Shown one piece after another: positions 13,398 through 26,326 of a DNA stretch of 64,000 bases. Both the position numbers and the translations under genes were made by a program. The notes below the pieces were generated by a model. The model searched no databases, was not told the origin of the DNA, and saw only the letters and a list, made by a program, of their open reading frames with translations. Numbering within the stretch: the stretch's first letter is position 1; the number at the start of each line of letters is the position of its first letter. The stretch is from a bacterium (GTDB taxonomy: Bacteria; Omnitrophota; Gorgyraeia; Zapsychrales; Zapsychraceae), in assembly GCA_030429765.1 (NCBI GenBank), contig JAUIER010000013.1, positions 8,759-72,758 of the forward strand, read 5' to 3'.

Positions 13398-16300
13398 ATG
13401 TCCCATGAAACTTCAACAAGTTTGGAGATGAAAGTTTACAAACGAAATGGACAGGTGGTGGCCTTCAATGAAGCCCGCATCCAGAGCGCGATTGGCAATG
13501 CATTAAAAGAGCAGAAGAAGCTGCCGCGCGAGGCCGAGTTGTCCATTGTTGATGCCCACAACGCCAAGCACATCACGGATTGTGTGTTGTCGGTGCTGAC
13601 CGAGCGATGGTTGGAGAACGGTCAGTTAACGGTTGAAGAGATTCAGGACGAGGTGATCCGTCAGCTGTACGAGAACGGATTCAAGGAAGCGGCCGAACTG
13701 TACGCGAATTACCGCAAGCAGCATGCCGCGCGCCGGACATTATTTGAGTTGTATACGACGACCAAGCGCAACGGCAAGGTCGTATCATTCAAACCGGAAA
13801 AGATCACCATGGCCGTGTCGATGGCGTTTCGCGCGCACAATCACGGCATCCTTTCCCAGGACGTGCTTCAGCACGCCAAGAAGATTTCCGATATTGTCAT
13901 CAAAGAGATCCTCGAGAAGTGGCCGGAAGGCAAATGTGTGCATATCGAAGAGATCCAGGACATGGTCGAGAAAAACCTGATGACATCAGGTTTTCATGAA
14001 GTCGCCCGCAGTTATATCATCTACCGCGAGAAACGCAGCAAGGCCCGCCGCGCGCAGATCCTCGAAAAGACCGCGACCGAAACATTTGAATGGGCCAAGC
14101 ATCTCAAGTACAAGACCAACTCAGGCGAAGAAAAGCCGTTAAATCTCGAGGAGATCCGCTTTCAGATCGACACCTGCTGTCAGGGACTGGAAAATGTCGA
14201 GACCGACAAGATCCTCGAAGAGTCGCTCAAAAACTATTACAACGGCATCACCGAGGCCAAGATGGAGGCATCCAACATCATGGCCGCCAAATCCTTCCTC
14301 GAGCGCGAGCCGAATTACACCTACGCGGCATCGCGACTGTTACTCTTGAAACAATATCGTGAGGCCCTGAACCGGCCGGTGAGCTTTGAAGAGATCAAGA
14401 CCGAGTACTCAACCTATTTTGCCCGTTACATTCACCGGGCGGTGGATCTGGAATTATTGACACCGGATCTGCTTCAGTTTGATCTCAAGAAGCTTGGCGC
14501 GGCGATTCAGCCCAAACGTGATTTCAAGTTCCGTTATCTGGGATTGCAGACGCTGTATGACCGTTACTTTATCCACTGGGAAGAGGTTCGTCTAGAGCTT
14601 CCGCAGATCTTCTGGATGCGTGTGGCCATGGGCTTGGCGCAACGCGAAGGCGCCCGGAAGAACGAGCGCGCGATCGAGTTTTATAACATGCTATCAACCT
14701 TCCGATTTATGTCCTCGACGCCGACCTTGTTCAACGCCGGAACCCGCCATCCGCAATTGTCTTCGTGCTATCTGACCACCATCAATGACGATTTACAGCA
14801 CATCTTCAAGTGTATTCAGGACGACGCGATGCTGTCTAAATGGAGCGGCGGTCTGGGCAATGACTGGACCAATGTCCGTTCGATGGGATCGCGCATCAAG
14901 GGCACCAACGGCAAGAGCCAGGGGGTCATTCCATTCTTGAAGGTCGCCAATGATACGGCCCTCGCCGTCAATCAAGGTGGAAAACGTAAAGGCGCGATGT
15001 GTGCCTACCTTGAGGTATGGCATATGGATATCGAAGACTTTCTGGAGCTGTGGAAGAACACCGGTGATGATCGTCGGCGAACGCATGACATGCACACCGC
15101 CAGCTGGATCCCGGATCTGTTCATGAAGCGTCTTAAAGAAAACGGTAACTGGACGCTGTTCAGTCCCAACGAAGTGCCGGACCTGCATCACATTTACGGG
15201 CAGGAATTTGAACGCCGTTATGAAGAGTACGAGCGCCGGGCGCAGGCAGGCAAGATGAAGCAGTTCAAGACCATGCCGGCCGTGGATCTGTGGCGCAAAA
15301 TGCTCAACATGCTATTCGAAACAGGCCATCCATGGATCACCTGGAAGGACCCATCCAACGTGCGGTCACCTCAGAGTCATGTGGGAACAGTTCATAGCTC
15401 AAATCTGTGTACCGAAATTTTGCTGAACACGTCGTCAGAAGAGACAGCTGTATGTAACCTCGGATCAGTAAACCTGGCCGAGCACGTGTCGCTGGACGGC
15501 GGGATCAATCATCGCAAGCTGAAGTCCACGGTGCGAACGGCGGTCCGTATGCTGGATAATGTGATCGACATCAATTATTACCCGACATCCGAGGCCAAGC
15601 GCGCCAATCAGCGTCACCGCCCGATCGGGTTGGGGATTATGGGCTTCCAGGACGCGCTGTACATCCAGAACTGGAGCTATGCCTCGCGCGAAGCAGTGGA
15701 ATTTGCCGACGCGAGCATGGAGGCGGTATCCTACTATGCCATTCTGGCCTCGATCGAACTGGCCGCGGAAAAGGGCATTTACTCCTCGTACCGCGGGTCC
15801 AAATGGGATCAAGGGCTGCTGCCGATTGACACGCTGGCGCTATTGGAAAAAGAGCGCGGCGGTTATGTCAATATCGATCCCAAGACACGCATGGATTGGG
15901 ACGTCGTTCGCGGCGAACTCAAAAAGAAAGGCATCCGCAACAGTCTGGTGATGGCCATCGCCCCGACAGCGACCATCGGGAACATCGTCGGTGTCACGGC
16001 CTCCATCGAGCCGTTGTACAAGAATATCTTTGTGAAGAGTAATCTGTCCGGTGAGTTTACCGTGCTCAACGAATTTCTCGTCAATGACCTCAAGGCAGCC
16101 GGCCTGTGGGATCGGGAGATGATCGACGACTTGAAATACTTCGATGGAAGTATTCAGGAGATCGAGCGAATCCCCGAAGACCTCAAGCGCAAATACGCGA
16201 CGGCCTTTGAGATCGATTACGAATGGATCGTTGAATCCGCGGCCCGTCGTCAGAAGTGGATTGATATGGGACAATCACTCAATCTCTATCAGGCCAAACC

Positions 16301-16538
16301 CAGCGGCAAGAAGGTCAGCGATATGTATATGATGGCGTGGGAAAAAGGACTTAAGACCACGTATTACTTGAGGTCGATGGGCGCGACACGCATCGAGAAG
16401 AGCACGGTCGATGTCACACGCTACAACAACACCGTCGGACAACGCGAACGTGATGAATTCGGAAGAGTCACCGGCGCCGACGATCCCGACACAGCCCTAA
16501 GCATCGAGCCCAGCGAAGACTGCGAGGCTTGTCAGTAA
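13398..16538 (+). CDS. nrdA: Ribonucleoside-diphosphate reductase class Ia alpha subunit with N-terminal ATP-cone domains
   Basis: 1046 aa with repeated ATP-cone N-terminal segments, catalytic-core motifs (NLCTEI, SSCYL), and a C-terminal redox cysteine pair (CEAC). Confidence 0.9.
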   Translation: MSHETSTSLEMKVYKRNGQVVAFNEARIQSAIGNALKEQKKLPREAELSIVDAHNAKHITDCVLSVLTERWLENGQLTVEEIQDEVIRQLYENGFKEAAELYANYRKQHAARRTLFELYTTTKRNGKVVSFKPEKITMAVSMAFRAHNHGILSQDVLQHAKKISDIVIKEILEKWPEGKCVHIEEIQDMVEKNLMTSGFHEVARSYIIYREKRSKARRAQILEKTATETFEWAKHLKYKTNSGEEKPLNLEEIRFQIDTCCQGLENVETDKILEESLKNYYNGITEAKMEASNIMAAKSFLEREPNYTYAASRLLLLKQYREALNRPVSFEEIKTEYSTYFARYIHRAVDLELLTPDLLQFDLKKLGAAIQPKRDFKFRYLGLQTLYDRYFIHWEEVRLELPQIFWMRVAMGLAQREGARKNERAIEFYNMLSTFRFMSSTPTLFNAGTRHPQLSSCYLTTINDDLQHIFKCIQDDAMLSKWSGGLGNDWTNVRSMGSRIKGTNGKSQGVIPFLKVANDTALAVNQGGKRKGAMCAYLEVWHMDIEDFLELWKNTGDDRRRTHDMHTASWIPDLFMKRLKENGNWTLFSPNEVPDLHHIYGQEFERRYEEYERRAQAGKMKQFKTMPAVDLWRKMLNMLFETGHPWITWKDPSNVRSPQSHVGTVHSSNLCTEILLNTSSEETAVCNLGSVNLAEHVSLDGGINHRKLKSTVRTAVRMLDNVIDINYYPTSEAKRANQRHRPIGLGIMGFQDALYIQNWSYASREAVEFADASMEAVSYYAILASIELAAEKGIYSSYRGSKWDQGLLPIDTLALLEKERGGYVNIDPKTRMDWDVVRGELKKKGIRNSLVMAIAPTATIGNIVGVTASIEPLYKNIFVKSNLSGEFTVLNEFLVNDLKAAGLWDREMIDDLKYFDGSIQEIERIPEDLKRKYATAFEIDYEWIVESAARRQKWIDMGQSLNLYQAKPSGKKVSDMYMMAWEKGLKTTYYLRSMGATRIEKSTVDVTRYNNTVGQRERDEFGRVTGADDPDTALSIEPSEDCEACQ

Positions 16539-16876: not shown

Positions 16877-16942
16877 CTACTTACCCGCCATGAGGTTAGG
16901 TAAAGTTTTCGGAATTAATTGTTCATCCCCAAGGAGTCGATC

Positions 16943-17989
16943 ATGTCAGAACCATGCATGAAAATGTCAAAACAGCGGGTCACCGCGGACGACAAAAAGA
17001 TCATTAACAACGACCGCACCGTCGACTGTAACCAGCTCGTGCCGATCAAGTACAAATGGGCCTGGAATTTTTATCTAGACGGCTGCGCCAATCACTGGAT
17101 GCCGCAGGAAGTCTCGATGCAGCGCGATATCGAGCAGTGGAAGAATCCCGACGGGTTCACCGATGCCGAGCGTCACGTGATCAAACGTACATTCGGTTTT
17201 TTTGCCACGGCCGAAACGCTGGTCGGCAACAACCTGGTGCTGGCGGTCTACAAGATCATCGACAACCCTGAAGCGCGTCAGTATCTGCTGCGTCAGGCCT
17301 TCGAGGAAGCGATTCATGTGCATGCGTTTCAGTACATCGTGCAGTCGCTGTCGCTGGATGAAGGGGAGATGTTCAATATGTACCGCGAGGTCGAGGCGAT
17401 CTACAATAAGGACGAGTACGCGATGAGCTGCACCGACGGGATCCTTGATCCGGACCTGGACACACGCAGCACCGAAGGTCTGCAGAAGTTTATCAAGAAC
17501 CTCGTGGGATTCTACGGGATCACCGAAGGGATCTTTTTCTACAGCGGGTTTGTAACGATGTTATCATTCGGACGACAGAACCGTCTGCCGGGGACATGCG
17601 AGCAGATCCAGTATATCCTGCGGGACGAAAGCATTCACATGAACTTCGGTCTGCAATTGATCAACGCGATCATCGACGAGAATCCGCAGGTCTGGACACA
17701 GGCGTTCAAGGATGAGATCGTTGAGTTTATCCGTAACGCCGTCGAGCTTGAGCACAAATACGCCGAAGAGTGTCTGCCGGACGGGATTCTGGGTCTGAAT
17801 ACAGATCTGCTCAAAGAATACATTCAGTACATCGCCGACCGCCGTTTCGAACGGCTTCGTCTGCCCAAACAATACGGCTCCGACAATCCATTCCCGTGGA
17901 TGAGCGAGATCATCGATCTCAAGAAAGAGAAGAACTTCTTCGAGACAAGGGTGACGGAGTATCAGACAGGTGGCGCGTTGGAGTGGTAA
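16943..17989 (+). CDS. nrdB: Ribonucleoside-diphosphate reductase beta subunit (di-iron/tyrosyl radical)
   Basis: R2 ferritin-like motifs (FFATAETLV, EEAIHVHAF, DESIHMNFG) and an AAGGAG RBS before the ATG at 16943. Confidence 0.9.
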   Translation: MSEPCMKMSKQRVTADDKKIINNDRTVDCNQLVPIKYKWAWNFYLDGCANHWMPQEVSMQRDIEQWKNPDGFTDAERHVIKRTFGFFATAETLVGNNLVLAVYKIIDNPEARQYLLRQAFEEAIHVHAFQYIVQSLSLDEGEMFNMYREVEAIYNKDEYAMSCTDGILDPDLDTRSTEGLQKFIKNLVGFYGITEGIFFYSGFVTMLSFGRQNRLPGTCEQIQYILRDESIHMNFGLQLINAIIDENPQVWTQAFKDEIVEFIRNAVELEHKYAEECLPDGILGLNTDLLKEYIQYIADRRFERLRLPKQYGSDNPFPWMSEIIDLKKEKNFFETRVTEYQTGGALEW

Positions 17990-18056
17990 AGAGTTAGTTT
18001 GTTTTTAGTGATTCGAGTTTCGAAGTAAATAGATAAAATGGAAACAGTTTTTAAAA

Positions 18057-18086
18057 GCCTCCGTGTCGATCGCGGAGGCTTTTTTC
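18057..18086 (+). terminator. Rho-independent terminator ending the nrdAB operon
   Basis: GCCTCCG-tgtcgatcg-CGGAGGC stem followed by TTTTTT. Confidence 0.7.
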
Positions 18087-18101
18087 CATGAGGAATCCAA
18101 C

Positions 18102-19160
18102 ATGATGTGTAAAAATTGTGGTTCGCAAAATGATACAAATAACAACCGGTGTGGTAATTGTGGAGAATCATTATCTTCTGATTCGAGAATTGATATTGAA
18201 AGAAAATTGGAAAGATTGCAGGATTTAGGTGATAGTATTGACAAGAGGATAAAATTTTTTGACAAGAACAAGGAACTTATAGAATTAAATATTGATGAAA
18301 GTTTTCGATCAATATTTAAGAAAAAGTATATAAATATAATTGGCCTTATTACTTTCATGTTCACAATTGGTGTCGTGATATTAACAATGTTTGGCTGGAA
18401 TAACTTTAAAAGTTGGTTAAGACTAGAGTCACAAGAATATATTAGACAGTTTGGTCGGGACGAAGTAGAAAAGCAGTTTGAAAGCAAAAATATTCGTGCT
18501 TTGGTAATTGAAGTCGCGGAAGATAAAATAACAAATGAGCTTAGTCCTTCGTTTGAAGATGTAAAAGGGCAGTTAGACGAGAAAGTAAAAGATTTTGACT
18601 TTGATATTAGGGAAGAATTAAGAACTACAAAGAATGATATCAGTAATCAGATTAGAATACTTAAAGAACGTAATGAAGTGGAGGCTTTAGTAGATTTAGC
18701 AATTGTTGAAGGTGACAGAGATGCTTATAATAAAATTAGTAAAGAGATAGAAAGATATTCGGATCACGCAGGTAGTACTACAAATTTCAAAAAGGTACGG
18801 CTTTATGGTTCTGCACTGACTAGAATAAAGTCATTTTATACGTCCGGGCATAGAAGACCTTACTTTAATTTAAATTTTGATCCAAATAGTATTACCGTAA
18901 AAGAATTACTGAAAATTGCTGGTAATGATACTGATTGGGTTAACAGAAGTGCTTCAGTCTATACCCTGGGATTTAAAAAAAATGAGGAAGTTGTTGAAAC
19001 TTTAATAAACGTTTGCAAGAAGGATGCTCGTCTGGATGTTGTTGAGGAGTCCATGACTTCACTGATGAGTTTACTTCAGGTGCAAATGGATGTGTTTGAT
19101 TGTGGCTGGGCTGAGTCATATTGGAGGTTAAATAGGGCGAAGGTTATCGAAAAATGGTAG
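18102..19160 (+). CDS. Hypothetical membrane protein: N-terminal Zn-ribbon (CxxC-X11-CxxC), one TM helix, long coiled-coil region, C-terminal HEAT/PBS-lyase-like repeats
   Basis: Strongly AT-rich gene unlike its flanks. N-terminus MMCKNCGSQNDTNNNRCGNCGE, a TM segment IIGLITFMFTIGVVILTMFGW, a charged coiled-coil, and a C-terminal DTDWVNRSASVYTLG...DARLDVVEESMTSL repeat. The start in the ORF track at 18063 lies inside the nrdB terminator, so the ATG at 18102 with a GAGGA RBS is preferred. Confidence 0.5.
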   Translation: MMCKNCGSQNDTNNNRCGNCGESLSSDSRIDIERKLERLQDLGDSIDKRIKFFDKNKELIELNIDESFRSIFKKKYINIIGLITFMFTIGVVILTMFGWNNFKSWLRLESQEYIRQFGRDEVEKQFESKNIRALVIEVAEDKITNELSPSFEDVKGQLDEKVKDFDFDIREELRTTKNDISNQIRILKERNEVEALVDLAIVEGDRDAYNKISKEIERYSDHAGSTTNFKKVRLYGSALTRIKSFYTSGHRRPYFNLNFDPNSITVKELLKIAGNDTDWVNRSASVYTLGFKKNEEVVETLINVCKKDARLDVVEESMTSLMSLLQVQMDVFDCGWAESYWRLNRAKVIEKW

Positions 19161-19663
19161 TTTTTACTGTCAGAATTATCGATATACTACTCATACAATG
19201 GGCTAAATTAATATGTTTGATTTATTTTCTAGCTCTATGTTTGGCTTTTTCTTCTCTGGCTCACGCCGATGTCAAAGAAGCCGAGCAGTTTTTTCTGAAG
19301 TACCAAGAGTTGTGGAATTCATTCGACATCGAAGCTGCTGATCTATATACGGATAATACTAAATTTTTGGGAAAACGTGTCTATCCTAACGGTGTTGTTC
19401 GATCTATAGATTTGCCAGCTCCGTATCTAAAGGACTTAATTCGAAACACGATGCCCCTGGCACGATTGAAAAATGATAGGACGGAGTATAGTAATGTAAA
19501 GTACGAGATTACAGAGTTAGGTGTCAAAATTTCTGCCGATCGCTATTCGACGATGAAATGCTTTACTGATCCAACATTCTATATCATTATCAAAAAAATT
19601 GATGGAGAGTACAAAATCGTCGAGTCATATGGAACGTCGCAACCGCAGTCGAATTGTCAGTAA
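19154..19663 (+). CDS. Hypothetical secreted protein, NTF2/SnoaL-like fold suspected
   Basis: Second AT-rich gene of the islet. It has a hydrophobic N-terminal signal ending AHA and a roughly 130-aa mature domain. The ATG overlaps the previous stop (ATGGTAG). Confidence 0.45.
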   Translation: MVVFTVRIIDILLIQWAKLICLIYFLALCLAFSSLAHADVKEAEQFFLKYQELWNSFDIEAADLYTDNTKFLGKRVYPNGVVRSIDLPAPYLKDLIRNTMPLARLKNDRTEYSNVKYEITELGVKISADRYSTMKCFTDPTFYIIIKKIDGEYKIVESYGTSQPQSNCQ

Positions 19664-19706
19664 CTGTAATCATTTCTTACAGGAACAGATCTGGTAAAAG
19701 TACAGC

Positions 19707-22218: not shown

Positions 22219-22315
22219 TTACAAATCTAATTGGGTTTTGTAATTAACAATCCCCCCGCCATCCAGTATAATCAAGAGAAACCAAGTCTGAGACCAATTA
22301 ATCAAAGGAGATCGT

Positions 22316-22630
22316 ATGATCACAACGAGTATTGAATCGGTTCCGGGACGCAAGATCGTGGAACAGTACGGGATCGTGCAGGGAAGTACCGTACGGGCCA
22401 AAAACGTCGGGGTGGACTGTGTGGCCGGCTGTCAGAATACGTTTGGGGGCGAGCTCAAGGGATATTCACAGCTGCTCGAAGAATCGCGGGCCGAGGCGCT
22501 TGATCGCATGATCCAGCAGGCCGAGCAAAAAGGGGCGAATGCGGTGATCAATGTCCGCTTCGGAACGTCAACCATCACCCAGGGCGCGTCCGAGATCCTG
22601 GCCTATGGAACGGCCGTTCTCGTACAATAG
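22316..22630 (+). CDS. YbjQ/UPF0145 (DUF74) family protein
   Basis: 104 aa. SVPGRKIVEQYGIVQGSTVRAKNVG...ANAVINVRF is characteristic of YbjQ. Confidence 0.8.
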   Translation: MITTSIESVPGRKIVEQYGIVQGSTVRAKNVGVDCVAGCQNTFGGELKGYSQLLEESRAEALDRMIQQAEQKGANAVINVRFGTSTITQGASEILAYGTAVLVQ

Positions 22631-22639
22631 GAGGTCCGG

Positions 22640-23104
22640 ATGGAAAATTTAATTGGACTGATTTTCACCGTCGGGCTGATCGTTGTCGCATACTTTGTGG
22701 GCAAGACGATTGAGAACCGGCACTTTGAGGCGCTGAAGGCGCGCGAGCGTGAATTTCTGGATCTGCCGAGCCTCACGACGCAGCATTCGTATGACGAGGA
22801 AGGCATACAGGACTGCCGTCTGGTCTACGGGAATGTGGTGATCTCCGGCGACTATTTCAAAATGGTGCTCGCGGCGCTGTTGAAATTTTTTGGCGGGCGC
22901 ATTGTTGGATATGAATCGTTGATTGACCGGGCCCGTCGGGAGGCGATCCTGCGCATGCAGGCGGAGGCCAGGCAGTTCGGCGCGGACGCGGTGATCAACA
23001 CCCGTTTTGAGATGAGCAAACTCGATGCCATGACGCAGAATCAGGGAACCGGCATGTTTGAGATCCTGGTGTACGGCACGGCGATTAAGGTCAATCATGG
23101 CTAA
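22640..23104 (+). CDS. YbjQ/UPF0145-like protein with N-terminal TM anchor
   Basis: TM segment LIGLIFTVGLIVVAYFV followed by a YbjQ-like core (ADAVINTRFE...ILVYGTAIKV). Confidence 0.7.
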   Translation: MENLIGLIFTVGLIVVAYFVGKTIENRHFEALKAREREFLDLPSLTTQHSYDEEGIQDCRLVYGNVVISGDYFKMVLAALLKFFGGRIVGYESLIDRARREAILRMQAEARQFGADAVINTRFEMSKLDAMTQNQGTGMFEILVYGTAIKVNHG

Positions 23105-23996
23105 GTATGTCCCCCGCGAGACAACCGATAATGTCAACGTGTCGCGTGACAATCCGCTCGGTGTTTTTATCAAGGCCCTGATCGGGTTATCCGCGCTGAT
23201 GGCGATCACCTTTGTGGTGCTGGTGACATTGTCGGAGGTGTTTATCCGGTTTATGCCGGAGCGGGTCAATTTTGCCCTGGCCAAGATTATCTCTGAGAGA
23301 ATCGATACGCCGGAGCATCTCGAGGCGGAGCGTGAACGCATTCAGCAGATCCTCAATCAGGCGCTGGCGCAGACACGCTTCGAGGGCGATGAGTTCCGGC
23401 TGGAAATCCTTGAGACCGACGAGAAAAACGCGATGGCCTTTCCCGGGCGGACGATCGCGATCACCACGGAATTGCTCAAAGAATTAAAGTATGAAAACGA
23501 ATTGGTGATGATCCTCGGGCATGAGATCGGTCATTATCACAACAATGATCATCTGCGCTCCATGAGCCGGGCCGGCATCCTGATGGGGCTGGTGGGGTTG
23601 CTTGAGATCGGCGGGGCGGGCAGCGCGTCGAGTGTGATCAGCGGCACGACCAATCTGTTTTTCGGCCAGTATTCCCGGCATCAGGAGACCATGGCCGATG
23701 AATTTGGTCTGACGGTGCTGGATCAATACTACGGTCATGTCGACGGCGCCGTCAATACGTTTGAGGTGTTACGACAGGCCAACGAAAAAATGCTGACGCT
23801 GAACGGAATCCTGTCGACGCATCCGATCACCGATCAGCGGATGGAGCATTTAGAAAAATTGATTACGCAAATGGAATTGACGGATGAATCCGACGGATTG
23901 ATCCCGTTTGAGTTTAACCCCGAACCGCCTGACGATGAGGAGCCGGAAGATGACAGCGACGATGAAGAGCGTTCAGCCGACGATCAAACCGCTTAA
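23097..23996 (+). CDS. M48-family Zn metallopeptidase (HtpX/Ste24-like), membrane-anchored, acidic C-terminal tail
   Basis: HEIGH motif (LGHEIGHYHNND), a downstream ETMADEFG, and one N-terminal TM segment. The start overlaps the YbjQ-2 stop by 8 nt. Confidence 0.8.
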   Translation: MAKYVPRETTDNVNVSRDNPLGVFIKALIGLSALMAITFVVLVTLSEVFIRFMPERVNFALAKIISERIDTPEHLEAERERIQQILNQALAQTRFEGDEFRLEILETDEKNAMAFPGRTIAITTELLKELKYENELVMILGHEIGHYHNNDHLRSMSRAGILMGLVGLLEIGGAGSASSVISGTTNLFFGQYSRHQETMADEFGLTVLDQYYGHVDGAVNTFEVLRQANEKMLTLNGILSTHPITDQRMEHLEKLITQMELTDESDGLIPFEFNPEPPDDEEPEDDSDDEERSADDQTA

Positions 23997-24015
23997 TCCG
24001 CTTAAGGCGTGGTGG

Positions 24016-24576
24016 ATGGAGCGGGTGCTGTGGTGGCGCAGTTTTTGGCCGGTGATGTTCGCGCACAAACCTTTATGCGATCGATTTCACACGCATACGA
24101 TCCGCGTTGGACGGACCCATGTGTGCCGCAGCTGCGCGATTTTGTATGTATCGATGGCCTTATCTGTCATGTTCTTTGTGGTGTTGATGCAAGGACATAC
24201 TCTCCCTATCGAGGGAATGGTCGGGATAGCGGGGCTGACCATGGTTTTATCCTTTCCACCACTATATAAAAATCTGCCGCGAATCATTAAGGATGGAGTT
24301 CGCGCGTTGTTGGGTGTGTCAATCGCGGGAACGATCATGCTGGCGGTTGACGGTCAATGGCCATGGGCCGCGGGCATGGCGGTGGGGCTGTGGGGCGCCA
24401 AGTTGTTGTTTCAGATGTTTCGCGCGCGGCGTTCGGCCTCGGCCTGCGACAGCTGTCCGGAGTATCGGCAAAATCAGATCTGTTCAGGGTATCGTCTTAA
24501 GGCCCGACGGATGAGGATCTATGAACGCGTCCTGACACAGAAGATCCTGCGGTATCAAAGGTTCAGCGAGTCCTGA
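24016..24576 (+). CDS. DUF2085-like Cys-rich membrane protein
   Basis: HKPLCDRF...VCRSCAILY matches the DUF2085 pattern (HxxPxRsf...vCaRCtGiy). Multiple TM helices, with a C-terminal CDSCPE...ICSG motif. An alternative start is at 23959. Confidence 0.5.
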   Translation: MERVLWWRSFWPVMFAHKPLCDRFHTHTIRVGRTHVCRSCAILYVSMALSVMFFVVLMQGHTLPIEGMVGIAGLTMVLSFPPLYKNLPRIIKDGVRALLGVSIAGTIMLAVDGQWPWAAGMAVGLWGAKLLFQMFRARRSASACDSCPEYRQNQICSGYRLKARRMRIYERVLTQKILRYQRFSES

Positions 24577-24602: not shown

Positions 24603-24631
24603 TTGACAATGTCGCCTGATTCACCTATACT
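24603..24631 (+). promoter_or_regulatory. Near-consensus sigma70 promoter (TTGACA-N17-TATACT)
   Basis: Hexamers and spacing read directly from the sequence. It lies about 40 nt upstream of the 24670 gene. Confidence 0.45.
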
Positions 24632-25596: not shown

Positions 25597-25761
25597 ATGG
25601 GTTTTATTTTAGGTCCGGTTGTTTTTATTTTAGATATTCTCGCGCTGGTGGATTGCTGGAAGAGTGGGATGGATCAGAACAAGAAGATCTTGTGGACGAT
25701 TCTCATCTTGATTCTGCCATTGGTCGGATTGATCCTGTATTATCTGGTGGGAAAAAAGTAA
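25597..25761 (+). CDS. PLDc_N-family small membrane protein (54 aa)
   Basis: MGFILGPVVFILDILALVDCWKSG...KILWTILILILPLVGLILYYLVGKK matches the phospholipase-D-nuclease N-terminal micro-protein family. AAGGAGG RBS. The gene is below the ORF-track length cutoff. Confidence 0.55.
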   Translation: MGFILGPVVFILDILALVDCWKSGMDQNKKILWTILILILPLVGLILYYLVGKK

Positions 25762-25782
25762 CACGCGCTGAATTGATTGACA

Positions 25783-25812
25783 GGGCCTCCAGGGATGGAG
25801 GCCCTTTTTTGT
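25783..25812 (+). terminator. Rho-independent terminator
   Basis: GGGCCTCC-agggat-GGAGGCCC followed by TTTTTT. Confidence 0.75.
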
Positions 25813-25900
25813 TGCGTTAGCTGACGCAAAATATTTCGCATTCGAGCGCGTTTCGTGTATACTAGCTGGACTGACACAACAAACAAGAGGAGAACACACG

Positions 25901-26326
25901 ATGCCGTGCAGCGACAGCTCATCCAGTATGGTAATCCAGCTGGATCATGAGGAAAAATTTGTCGGTTTTGAATACGCGAAGATCACCTGCGGCCGGGAGA
26001 TCACCGGATCCACCGGTCTCAATGAATATTTTAAGGGATGGGAATTATCGCGCATTATCGATTGTCCTTACAATCAAATCTGCACCGCTCTGGATGTTCA
26101 GGAAGAAGAGAATCAATATATCCTGTATCTGGAATGGGACGTGCTTCGCGCTGGACTCGCGCTGTATCTGGGAATCGACGATCCGCACATCGACACCGAC
26201 CGATGTTTAATCACCTCTATTGAACACGCCGATAAGGGCATTGAGATCGCTCAGGTGGTCTTGCCCCCTAAAGAAATGCCCAAAATCCTGCCATGCAGTC
26301 TCGGTGATACCGATCCGAATCAGTAA
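25901..26326 (+). CDS. Hypothetical protein
   Basis: An ORF with an upstream TATACT -10 element. No family recognised. Confidence 0.35.
   Translation: MPCSDSSSSMVIQLDHEEKFVGFEYAKITCGREITGSTGLNEYFKGWELSRIIDCPYNQICTALDVQEEENQYILYLEWDVLRAGLALYLGIDDPHIDTDRCLITSIEHADKGIEIAQVVLPPKEMPKILPCSLGDTDPNQ

Follow-up and report, generated by a model that had tools for sequence, protein, structure and literature searches.

Among described zinc metalloproteases of the M48 family, HtpX is an inner-membrane enzyme that acts in membrane protein quality control, while BepA (YfgC), LoiP (YggG) and the Geobacter protein of Protein Data Bank (PDB) entry 3C37 represent a periplasmic type. In other families, a membrane protease is encoded and acts together with a membrane-anchored oligomeric ring protein, as in the NfeD-stomatin and FtsH-HflK/C systems, and in the GlnK-AmtB system, a small cytoplasmic PII oligomer docks on a membrane partner from the same operon. 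The YbjQ (UPF0145) family has had crystal structures for ~20 years with its function still unassigned, and the same holds for bacterial AIM24 (DUF124) proteins. Here, we describe a locus in a 64,000-nucleotide (nt) stretch of DNA from an Omnitrophota bacterium (contig JAUIER010000013.1; the whole stretch is hereafter called the window), in which four consecutive forward-strand genes encode a soluble YbjQ protein (YbjQ1), a YbjQ protein with a transmembrane (TM) helix (YbjQ2), an M48 metalloprotease and a Cys-rich membrane protein (open reading frame 4, ORF4). We propose, with moderate confidence, that the YbjQ proteins form a ring in the cytoplasm, which serves as a subunit or as a regulator of an M48 protease anchored in the inner membrane and facing the periplasm.

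When compared to the described systems, the window M48 protein is of the same family and fold as BepA, LoiP and 3C37, with an intact HExxH motif and downstream Glu, and its catalytic domain is likewise predicted to be periplasmic. It differs from BepA and LoiP in having no TPR domain (none in a Pfam search) and no lipobox or other lipoprotein signal, its N-terminus consisting instead of a presumably cytoplasmic tail and a TM anchor, and we know of no report of an operon partnership with YbjQ or AIM24 proteins for either enzyme. HtpX is similarly an inner-membrane-anchored M48 metalloprotease but has several TM segments and a cytoplasmic active site, whereas the window protein has a single TM helix and a predicted periplasmic active site. 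The NfeD-stomatin and FtsH-HflK/C systems are alike in organization, by analogy, although the families are unrelated and the ring and catalytic domain would here lie on opposite sides of the membrane. Our favored working analogy is GlnK-AmtB, which also combines a small α/β cytoplasmic oligomer, plausibly ligand-sensing, with a co-operonic membrane partner; however, there is no homology, no YbjQ ligand is known to us, YbjQ2 has its own TM anchor, and the partner is a protease rather than a channel. Finally, the YbjQ proteins of PDB entries 1VR4, 2GTC and 1Y2I are stand-alone soluble proteins, whereas the window encodes a soluble and a TM-anchored YbjQ as a pair tied to a protease.

The four genes are closely packed. 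YbjQ1 (22316–22630, 104 amino acids, aa) is a canonical YbjQ protein that matches PF01906 over profile positions 1–103 (122.9 bits against a gathering score of 23 bits, E = 1e-35), aligns over its full length with 1VR4/2GTC (E = 2.5e-13) and has no hydrophobic segment able to serve as a signal or anchor. After a 9-nt gap that contains GGAGG, YbjQ2 (22640–23104, 154 aa) begins with a hydrophobic helix at residues 3–21 (mean Kyte-Doolittle value of 2.23), followed by a PF01906 domain at residues 46–151 (85.3 bits, E = 5e-24, profile positions 4–103). The ATG of the M48 gene (23097–23996, 299 aa) lies at 23097 and overlaps the YbjQ2 stop, with an 8-nt overlap between the two genes. Its product matches PF01435 at positions 2–185 of 186 (103.3 bits against a gathering score of 20.3 bits, E = 2e-29) and is built from an N-terminal tail of ~20 aa (V-N-V-S-x-x-x-P-L), one long TM helix, a catalytic domain with the zinc motif within LGHEIGHY, and an acidic C-terminal tail (PEPPDDEEPEDDSDDEERSADD). 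These profile matches and the helix at residues 3–21 bear out a first-pass annotation of the same DNA, which had proposed two tandem YbjQ genes, the second N-terminally anchored, with starts and stops that overlap or abut a membrane-anchored HEIGH-type M48 protease with an acidic tail.

ORF4 (23950–24576, 208 aa) has a GAGGAG ribosome-binding site at its ATG at 23950, a start that agrees with a database gene call of 208 aa and overlaps the 3′ end of the M48 gene by 47 nt. Alternative starts exist at 23962 and 24016, and we prefer 23950 to 24016 because homologs align upstream of the latter. In a consensus scan alone, a candidate promoter on the forward strand, TTAACA-17-TATAAT at 22244–22272 (11 of 12 consensus letters), precedes YbjQ1, and a second comparable site is found beyond ORF4 at 24603–24631. 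That the first such site after the one ahead of YbjQ1 comes past ORF4 fits a four-gene transcription unit. An Rfam scan of the whole window gave no match, and thus no known riboswitch or leader ahead of the operon. Our best reading, in which we hold somewhat better than even confidence as a whole model, is that the four genes form one operon encoding a membrane complex. The closest named homologs of the window proteins are in Candidatus Omnitrophica bins.

To describe the distribution of the arrangement, we define the cassette as a ~104-aa soluble YbjQ, a ~150-aa TM-YbjQ and a single-TM M48 protein with the N-tail xNVSxxxPL, encoded on the same strand by genes that overlap or lie at most 30 nt apart; the window locus conforms in every respect. 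The GTDB was scanned with an alignment of the M48 subfamily (one genome per species, best loci kept), and metagenomes were scanned with a YbjQ2 alignment, yielding a further 80 loci. Both scans were pattern-seeded, and the results below refer to the best 80 of 218 and the best 80 of 503 loci, respectively, with ORFs called in this analysis and hidden Markov models built from the window proteins and one cyanobacterial locus. In all 44 assessable non-cyanobacterial GTDB loci, YbjQ genes lie directly 5′ of the M48 gene on the same strand, and in 42 of these, a ~104-aa soluble YbjQ is followed by a ~150–165-aa YbjQ with an N-terminal TM helix. The exceptions are L029, which lacks YbjQ2, and L050, where YbjQ1 is lost at the contig end. 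The 44 loci come from Acidobacteriota (8), Gammaproteobacteria/Pseudomonadota (20, mostly Woeseiaceae), delta-proteobacterial lineages (8) and Melainabacteria (2), with one each from Nitrospinota, Nitrospirota, Omnitrophota, Myxococcota, Opitutaceae and an unclassified bacterium. The triad is thus present in at least nine phylum-level groups with its order, orientation and tight spacing kept, a 400-nt gap within the cassette of L015 notwithstanding. At another locus, in a Bryobacterales genome (L022:5535–5921), a PIN-like ORF (MRALLDTHVFLW...) lies between YbjQ2 and M48.

The metagenome loci show the same arrangement. YbjQ1 is 5′ of YbjQ2 at every assessable locus, and of the 74 loci whose downstream sequence is long enough, 68 have M48 3′ of YbjQ2; the other six (L124, L127, L132, L143, L152 and L159) have the YbjQ pair without M48. 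At L132 and L159, the genes next after the pair are SbcD/SbcC-like. Out of 98 YbjQ2/M48 junctions, 50 overlap (40 of them by 4 nt, of the ATGA type) and 41 have a spacing of 0–30 nt, such that translational coupling of YbjQ2 and M48 is general. Because the gene arrangement recurs in ~120 independent loci, chance is excluded as its explanation. All-against-all clustering of the ORFs around the loci gave no further conserved neighbor family, and the cassette is therefore self-contained in varying contexts. All 44 GTDB carriers belong to diderm phyla, which fits a role in the envelope within this small sample of best-scoring loci. The linkage of YbjQ pairs to M48 proteases in other taxa, on which the first-pass annotation had staked its proposal, is thus found in 44/44 GTDB loci, 68/74 metagenome loci and two lineages of gene fusions described below, and the tie is supported, from comparative sequence evidence, as a physical and functional partnership.

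The M48 homologs form a distinct subfamily of 260–300 aa in which an N-tail and one TM helix precede the catalytic domain. Since H142, E143, H146 and E197 are invariant among 31 members, giving the HExxH motif and a downstream Glu, the enzyme is probably active, with E197 as the presumed third zinc ligand. The AlphaFold2 (AF2) model (mean predicted local distance difference test score, pLDDT, of 83.6; helix at residues 20–51) has an M48 fold, for which Foldseek returns 3C37 (E = 8e-7) and BepA (6AIT/6SAR, E = 4e-5), followed by ZMPSTE24, BlaR1 and minigluzincins. The best NCBIfam matches are likewise LoiP (NF052399, E = 1e-12) and BepA (NF052400, E = 1e-11), both far below the equivalog cut-offs (48 versus 365 bits and 44 versus 570 bits, respectively), while matches to HtpX profiles are weak and partial (E ~1e-6, 22–28 bits versus cut-offs of 245–422). 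The N-tail has the consensus M-[KR]-[YF]-x-P-[RK]-x-P-x-[ED]-x-[VI]-N-V-[ST]-x-x-[HS]-P-L-x-E, with the N in 90/94 and the P in 82/94 sequences. A more distant M48 protein, P0062 (E = 6e-11), has no YbjQ or AIM24 partner, which speaks for specificity of the linkage.

On the YbjQ side, a ~104-aa YbjQ1 ortholog occupies the same position in all assessable loci, and the window YbjQ1 carries a lineage-specific motif, D34-C35-V-A-G-C39. Every YbjQ2 ortholog examined has the N-terminal TM helix, which is followed by a conserved basic juxtamembrane helix (E-x-R-H-Y/F...R-E) and the YbjQ domain, with DYF, GG and DRARRE as invariant motifs. Across 76 other triads, the median identity to the window proteins is 59.6% for YbjQ1, 44.6% for YbjQ2 and 31.5% for M48, which makes YbjQ1, small and soluble, the component under the strongest constraint. 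Homologs of YbjQ2 are numerous: a word index gives 840 matches, and among 1.84 billion cluster representatives searched by profile, 433 match at E ≤ 1e-30, 1,407 at E ≤ 1e-10 and 4,625 at E ≤ 1e-3. Among them are variants of ~240–265 aa (P0174 at L171:3501–4253, as well as P0103, P0097, P0143 and P0159) with an extra conserved C-terminal domain of ~90 aa (RYKVVFSGE...GA.CRIE), which are still located within a YbjQ1-YbjQ2-M48 operon. We considered these ~250-aa proteins as YbjQ1-YbjQ2 fusions and rejected this reading, the extra part being the C-terminal domain.

The search of cluster representatives also yields two divergent lineages in which TM-YbjQ2 and M48 are fused in one chain. In the first, P0248 (L170:3001–4329; on two ~41-kb contigs), PF01906 and PF01435 lie on one 442-aa product, and a 108-aa YbjQ1 gene overlaps the start of the fusion by 4 nt. 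In the second, P0305, the YbjQ2-M48 fusion is 410 aa long and is found on four contigs from several sources. Natural fusions of this kind are classical evidence of physical association. Both fusions have the same order: a TM helix, the YbjQ domain, the N-tail motif of M48 (INIS..SPL or VNTT), a second TM helix and the catalytic domain. From this order, the M48 N-tail would share a membrane side with the YbjQ domain, and the catalytic domain would lie across the membrane from both.

The sides themselves can be assigned from charge and architecture. In YbjQ2, the 15 residues that follow the TM helix hold on average 4.5 Lys/Arg (K/R), against almost none ahead of it (n = 115), and the YbjQ2 relatives P0279 and P0329 have a signal peptide and a ~200-aa domain ahead of the TM helix. 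Because of this bias and these signal peptides, and because YbjQ1 lacks a hydrophobic segment, the YbjQ domains are predicted to be cytoplasmic, which indicates an N-out/C-in YbjQ2 that is held at the membrane by its helix. For M48, the mean net charge is +0.76 in the N-tail and -1.39 in the C-flank (n = 94, aligned regions), with the N side more positive than the C-flank in 70/96 sequences. On the basis of the fusions, the charge bias, and the profile and fold matches to the BepA/LoiP type, we infer that the catalytic domain is periplasmic and the N-tail cytoplasmic. The reverse topology, with an HtpX-like cytoplasmic catalytic domain on the same side as the YbjQ ring and a periplasmic N-tail, has in its favor that HtpX, also an M48 protease, has a cytoplasmic active site and that our first charge test, with 15-aa windows around the hydrophobic core, gave no bias for M48. 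The repeat with aligned tails and flanks, however, favors N-in, with ~3 K/R in the N-tail against an acidic C-flank; in addition, P0248 and P0305 have no TM helix between the YbjQ domain and the N-tail and have the catalytic domain beyond the second one, and the best profile and fold matches are to the periplasmic BepA/LoiP type rather than to HtpX. We therefore regard the reverse topology as very unlikely.

The same evidence bears on whether the YbjQ proteins are clients of the protease. M48 might cleave YbjQ2 to release the ring, or mature or degrade YbjQ, with the YbjQ pair as substrate or cargo. Operons of a membrane protease and its substrate exist, as in NfeD-stomatin, and both the conserved juxtamembrane segment of YbjQ2 and the tight coupling of YbjQ2 and M48 would suit such a processing event. 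The fusions and the charge bias, however, separate the catalytic from the YbjQ domains by the membrane, the periplasmic N-terminus of YbjQ2 would amount to just ~2–8 residues, and a stable protease-substrate fusion in two lineages would be odd for a release switch. Processing of YbjQ by M48 is thus quite unlikely in our view, and with the opposite-side topology, the YbjQ ring would not be a substrate of the protease.

The proposal of a ring follows from the five chains in each of the solved entries 1VR4, 2GTC and 1Y2I and from a natural chain, P0219 (627 aa), in which five tandem diverged YbjQ domains form what is in effect a one-polypeptide ring. Another protein, P0272 (460 aa, N-terminally cut), has at least four such tandem diverged domains. 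In the mechanism that we favor, soluble YbjQ1 and anchored YbjQ2 would together build one mixed ring, located at the inner membrane on its cytoplasmic side. M48 would span this membrane once, its short VNVS..PL N-tail being cytoplasmic and adjacent to the ring and its zinc-protease domain periplasmic, and the ring would dock on the N-tail and TM helix as a cytoplasmic subunit. From this position, the ring could bring protease molecules together in the periplasm or act as their switch, governed by a cytoplasmic signal, with processing or quality control of envelope proteins as the output. In the lineage of the window, ORF4 would be an added fourth subunit that directs six invariant Cys and one His toward the cytoplasm.

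In cyanobacteria, the partner of M48 is different. At 30 GTDB loci (e.g., L003:3730–6813, L017, L024 and L045), three AIM24 (PF01987) genes precede the M48 gene and there is no YbjQ pair; these loci belong to oxygenic cyanobacteria and one other bin. Two further cyanobacterial M48 genes stand alone (L046 and L071), and four other loci lie at contig ends. In a neighbor-joining tree of 133 M48 catalytic domains, inferred without support values, the 31 AIM24-linked and 4 partner-less sequences form one clade that contains no YbjQ-linked member, while the M48 sequences of Melainabacteria keep the YbjQ type. This topology therefore points to one replacement, which took place on the oxygenic cyanobacterial stem. 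The three AIM24 genes have a fixed order and no TM segment, and with 67–73% identity between orthologs versus 34–41% between paralogs, the triplet is, by sequence, one of ancient paralogs; homologs with solved structures include 1YOX and 1PG6. The AIM24-linked M48 proteins also have a different N-tail (PYSSPIS.RNPEPN), and this change along with the partner swap fits the tail as a docking element.

AIM24 has mitochondrial homologs in eukaryotes, where the M48 protease Oma1 resides in the same membrane. As a tentative extension that we consider possible but doubtful, YbjQ rings and cyanobacterial AIM24 hetero-oligomers might be interchangeable cytoplasmic regulatory subunits of single-pass M48 proteases that face the periplasm, such that an "inside-out" protease switch would be widespread in diderms and the YbjQ ring would be a portable adaptor or sensor for either M48 or ORF4 with a TM zinc-ribbon protein. 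The swap of partner modules, YbjQ versus AIM24, could also be read as a sign of anti-phage defense or of a toxin-antitoxin-like cassette in which the anchored ring is a pore-forming effector checked by the protease, as could the self-contained nature of the cassette in variable genomic contexts and the PIN-like insertion at one locus. Against this, a search of PADLOC-DB 2.0 with seven proteins of the region finds 0 families at E ≤ 0.1, and M48 homologs are absent from 72,556 plasmids and 50,697 phage records; with these searches empty, a mobile-defense origin was rejected as the leading reading. The distribution moreover tracks taxonomy (all sampled Woeseiaceae; one cyanobacterial clade), there is one cassette per ~12-kb locus, and YbjQ1 is highly conserved, a pattern closer to housekeeping than to arms-race genes. 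A defense function is accordingly highly improbable.

The fourth gene of the window connects the triad to a second YbjQ-linked module. The AF2 model of ORF4 is a four-helix membrane protein (pLDDT of 91.3) with an N-terminal AHKPLC...CRSC motif and a C-terminal C-x-x-C-P-E...ICSGY motif; numbered from the 24016 start, H17, C21, C37 and C40 in the former and C144, C147 and C156 in the latter are invariant. A cytoplasmic location is expected for both Cys clusters, given that there are four helices and that helix 4 is followed by basic residues. The first-pass annotation had named the gene DUF2085 (PF09858). There is a resemblance between AHKPLC...CRSC and the motif of that family, CHQxPxRS...CARC, and ORF4 is like DUF2085 proteins in that its TM helices come after a Cys/His motif at the N-terminus. 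The name does not hold at Pfam thresholds, however: ORF4 and all 21 of its homologs fall below them, with sub-threshold PF09858 matches in 3/21 homologs (best E = 0.005) and a precomputed Pfam domain in 0/21, and ORF4 has a second, C-terminal Cys cluster. ORF4 matches no family in Pfam, NCBIfam or PADLOC, and at E ≤ 10, Pfam returns only a chance match to Noggin. A remote relationship to DUF2085 may nevertheless exist.

Within the triads, ORF4 is confined to one lineage. Just four of ~160 loci have an ORF4 homolog 3′ of M48 (the window, L002, L085 and L086), and these together with L087 make up the M48 clade of the window in the neighbor-joining tree. Of 77 triads, these five alone have a YbjQ1 that carries DCxxGC. 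With L087 left out, its sequence ending 19 nt past M48, ORF4 is present at 4/4 assessable loci with a DCxxGC-type YbjQ1 versus 0/57 others (Fisher p = 2e-6, a value that overstates independence within one lineage), which suggests that ORF4 and the DCxxGC motif of YbjQ1 share a metal or thiol site. Our first view of ORF4 as a lineage-specific bystander was dropped since its homologs adjoin a YbjQ gene in every look-up. In 6/6 cases from Chloroflexota, Planctomycetota and other bins (L166:150–1507, L167:3288–4555, L168:3219–4430, L169:3347–4597, L174:593–1858 and L176:2355–3606), where no M48 is present, the homolog lies directly 3′ of a gene for a 149–164-aa YbjQ, often with a 4-nt overlap. This YbjQ has no TM helix, is extended at both ends (with GTRPEI at the N-terminus) and carries an M-G-C motif where YbjQ1 of the window lineage has DCxxGC, and 5′ of it is encoded a 55–83-aa protein that combines a CxxC...CxxC zinc ribbon with a single TM helix. 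Judged by these neighborhoods, ORF4 is another type of membrane partner linked to YbjQ, and both modules are united in the window operon, such that its inclusion in the operon by the first-pass annotation was well founded.

These features raise the question of whether metal or redox homeostasis is the primary function, with the YbjQ ring and Cys-rich ORF4 binding a metal, an iron-sulfur cluster or a thiol group and the protease being accessory. In this direction point the annotation of PF01906 as putative heavy-metal-binding, the six invariant Cys and one His of ORF4, the presence of DCxxGC in YbjQ1 exactly where ORF4 is present, the additional CxxC...CxxC zinc-ribbon protein of the ORF4-only modules, and weak matches to the FeoB-associated Cys-rich family. 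Yet 72/77 triads lack the Cys motif of YbjQ1, and none of the assessable ones among these has ORF4. Metal or thiol chemistry is therefore not the core function of the triad. Furthermore, the neighborhood holds no conserved metal transporter or regulator, and the heavy-metal label in Pfam is an annotation. We thus consider metal or redox homeostasis unlikely as the function of the system as a whole, while in the variant with ORF4, and only there, metal or redox chemistry at Cys residues is plausible. The metal-stress role suggested by the first-pass annotation likewise draws its support, which is indirect, from the Cys motifs of this variant.

Several observations weigh against a ring-controlled protease. 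The six YbjQ1-YbjQ2 pairs without M48, the two lone cyanobacterial M48 genes and the one locus without YbjQ2 imply that the partnership is not obligatory. The difference in N-tail between the two partner types stems from a single evolutionary event and is thus weak evidence for contact between tail and ring, just as the association of ORF4 with DCxxGC within triads comes from a single lineage; in the ORF4-only modules, moreover, the first Cys of the YbjQ motif is not invariant (4/6). The topology is based on charge statistics and the logic of the fusion architectures. Finally, to our knowledge, no ligand, substrate or phenotype has been reported for any component, for which the label "heavy-metal-binding" of PF01906 is no substitute. 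Gene order, conservation, the fusions, the catalytic residues and the fold are observed directly. Beyond these, our confidence is greatest that YbjQ1, YbjQ2 and M48 form one complex and falls in order for a mixed ring, for the sidedness of its parts, for contact between ring and N-tail, and for clustering or switching of the protease.

Downstream of the operon, gene order is shared only with its closest relative. The window (25597–26326) and L002 (8509–9273) have in common a 54-aa PLDc_N membrane protein, a NifU_N-like ORF and the small and large subunits of acetolactate synthase on the minus strand, a synteny that was not seen at the other loci. Upstream, at 18005–19700, an island of 37% guanine-cytosine (GC) content in a contig of ~52% GC sits between ribonucleotide reductase genes (13398–16538 and 16919–17989) and an esterase gene. 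It contains two ORFs, one of 365 aa (18063–19160) that has a single TM helix and, at its N-terminus, a CxxC..CxxC zinc ribbon, and one of 169 aa (19154–19663). The island was probably acquired horizontally.

In a search of 8 million full texts, no paper links YbjQ or AIM24 to M48 and no functional study of YbjQ was found; a mention of PF01906 in the coevolution literature proved unrelated to the YbjQ-M48 linkage. An activity like that of thiamin phosphate synthase (ThiE) is one that we take to belong to YjbQ (UPF0047), a member of a different family. One paper refers to "YbjQ" as a ThiE analogue (PMC7084401), a statement that almost certainly concerns YjbQ and is not transferable to PF01906. 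Both protein families, PF01906 and PF01435, are known, and their linkage would amount to a membrane protease with an oligomeric accessory ring. If the coupling across the membrane is real, the system may be more distinct than a membrane protease with an accessory ring.

The conserved operon, the fusions and the partner swap tie YbjQ and AIM24 to one clade of membrane-anchored M48 proteases, and thereby provide the YbjQ family with a first firmly linked functional partner. For the question of metal or redox input, the four-gene variant of the window, with its Cys residues, offers a natural entry. Should YbjQ and AIM24 assemblies indeed be interchangeable regulatory subunits, this would be the first biochemical role for UPF0145 and DUF124/AIM24, and if a cytoplasmic ring does control a protease of the periplasm, the system would represent a new coupling of cytoplasmic state to envelope proteolysis in diderm bacteria.

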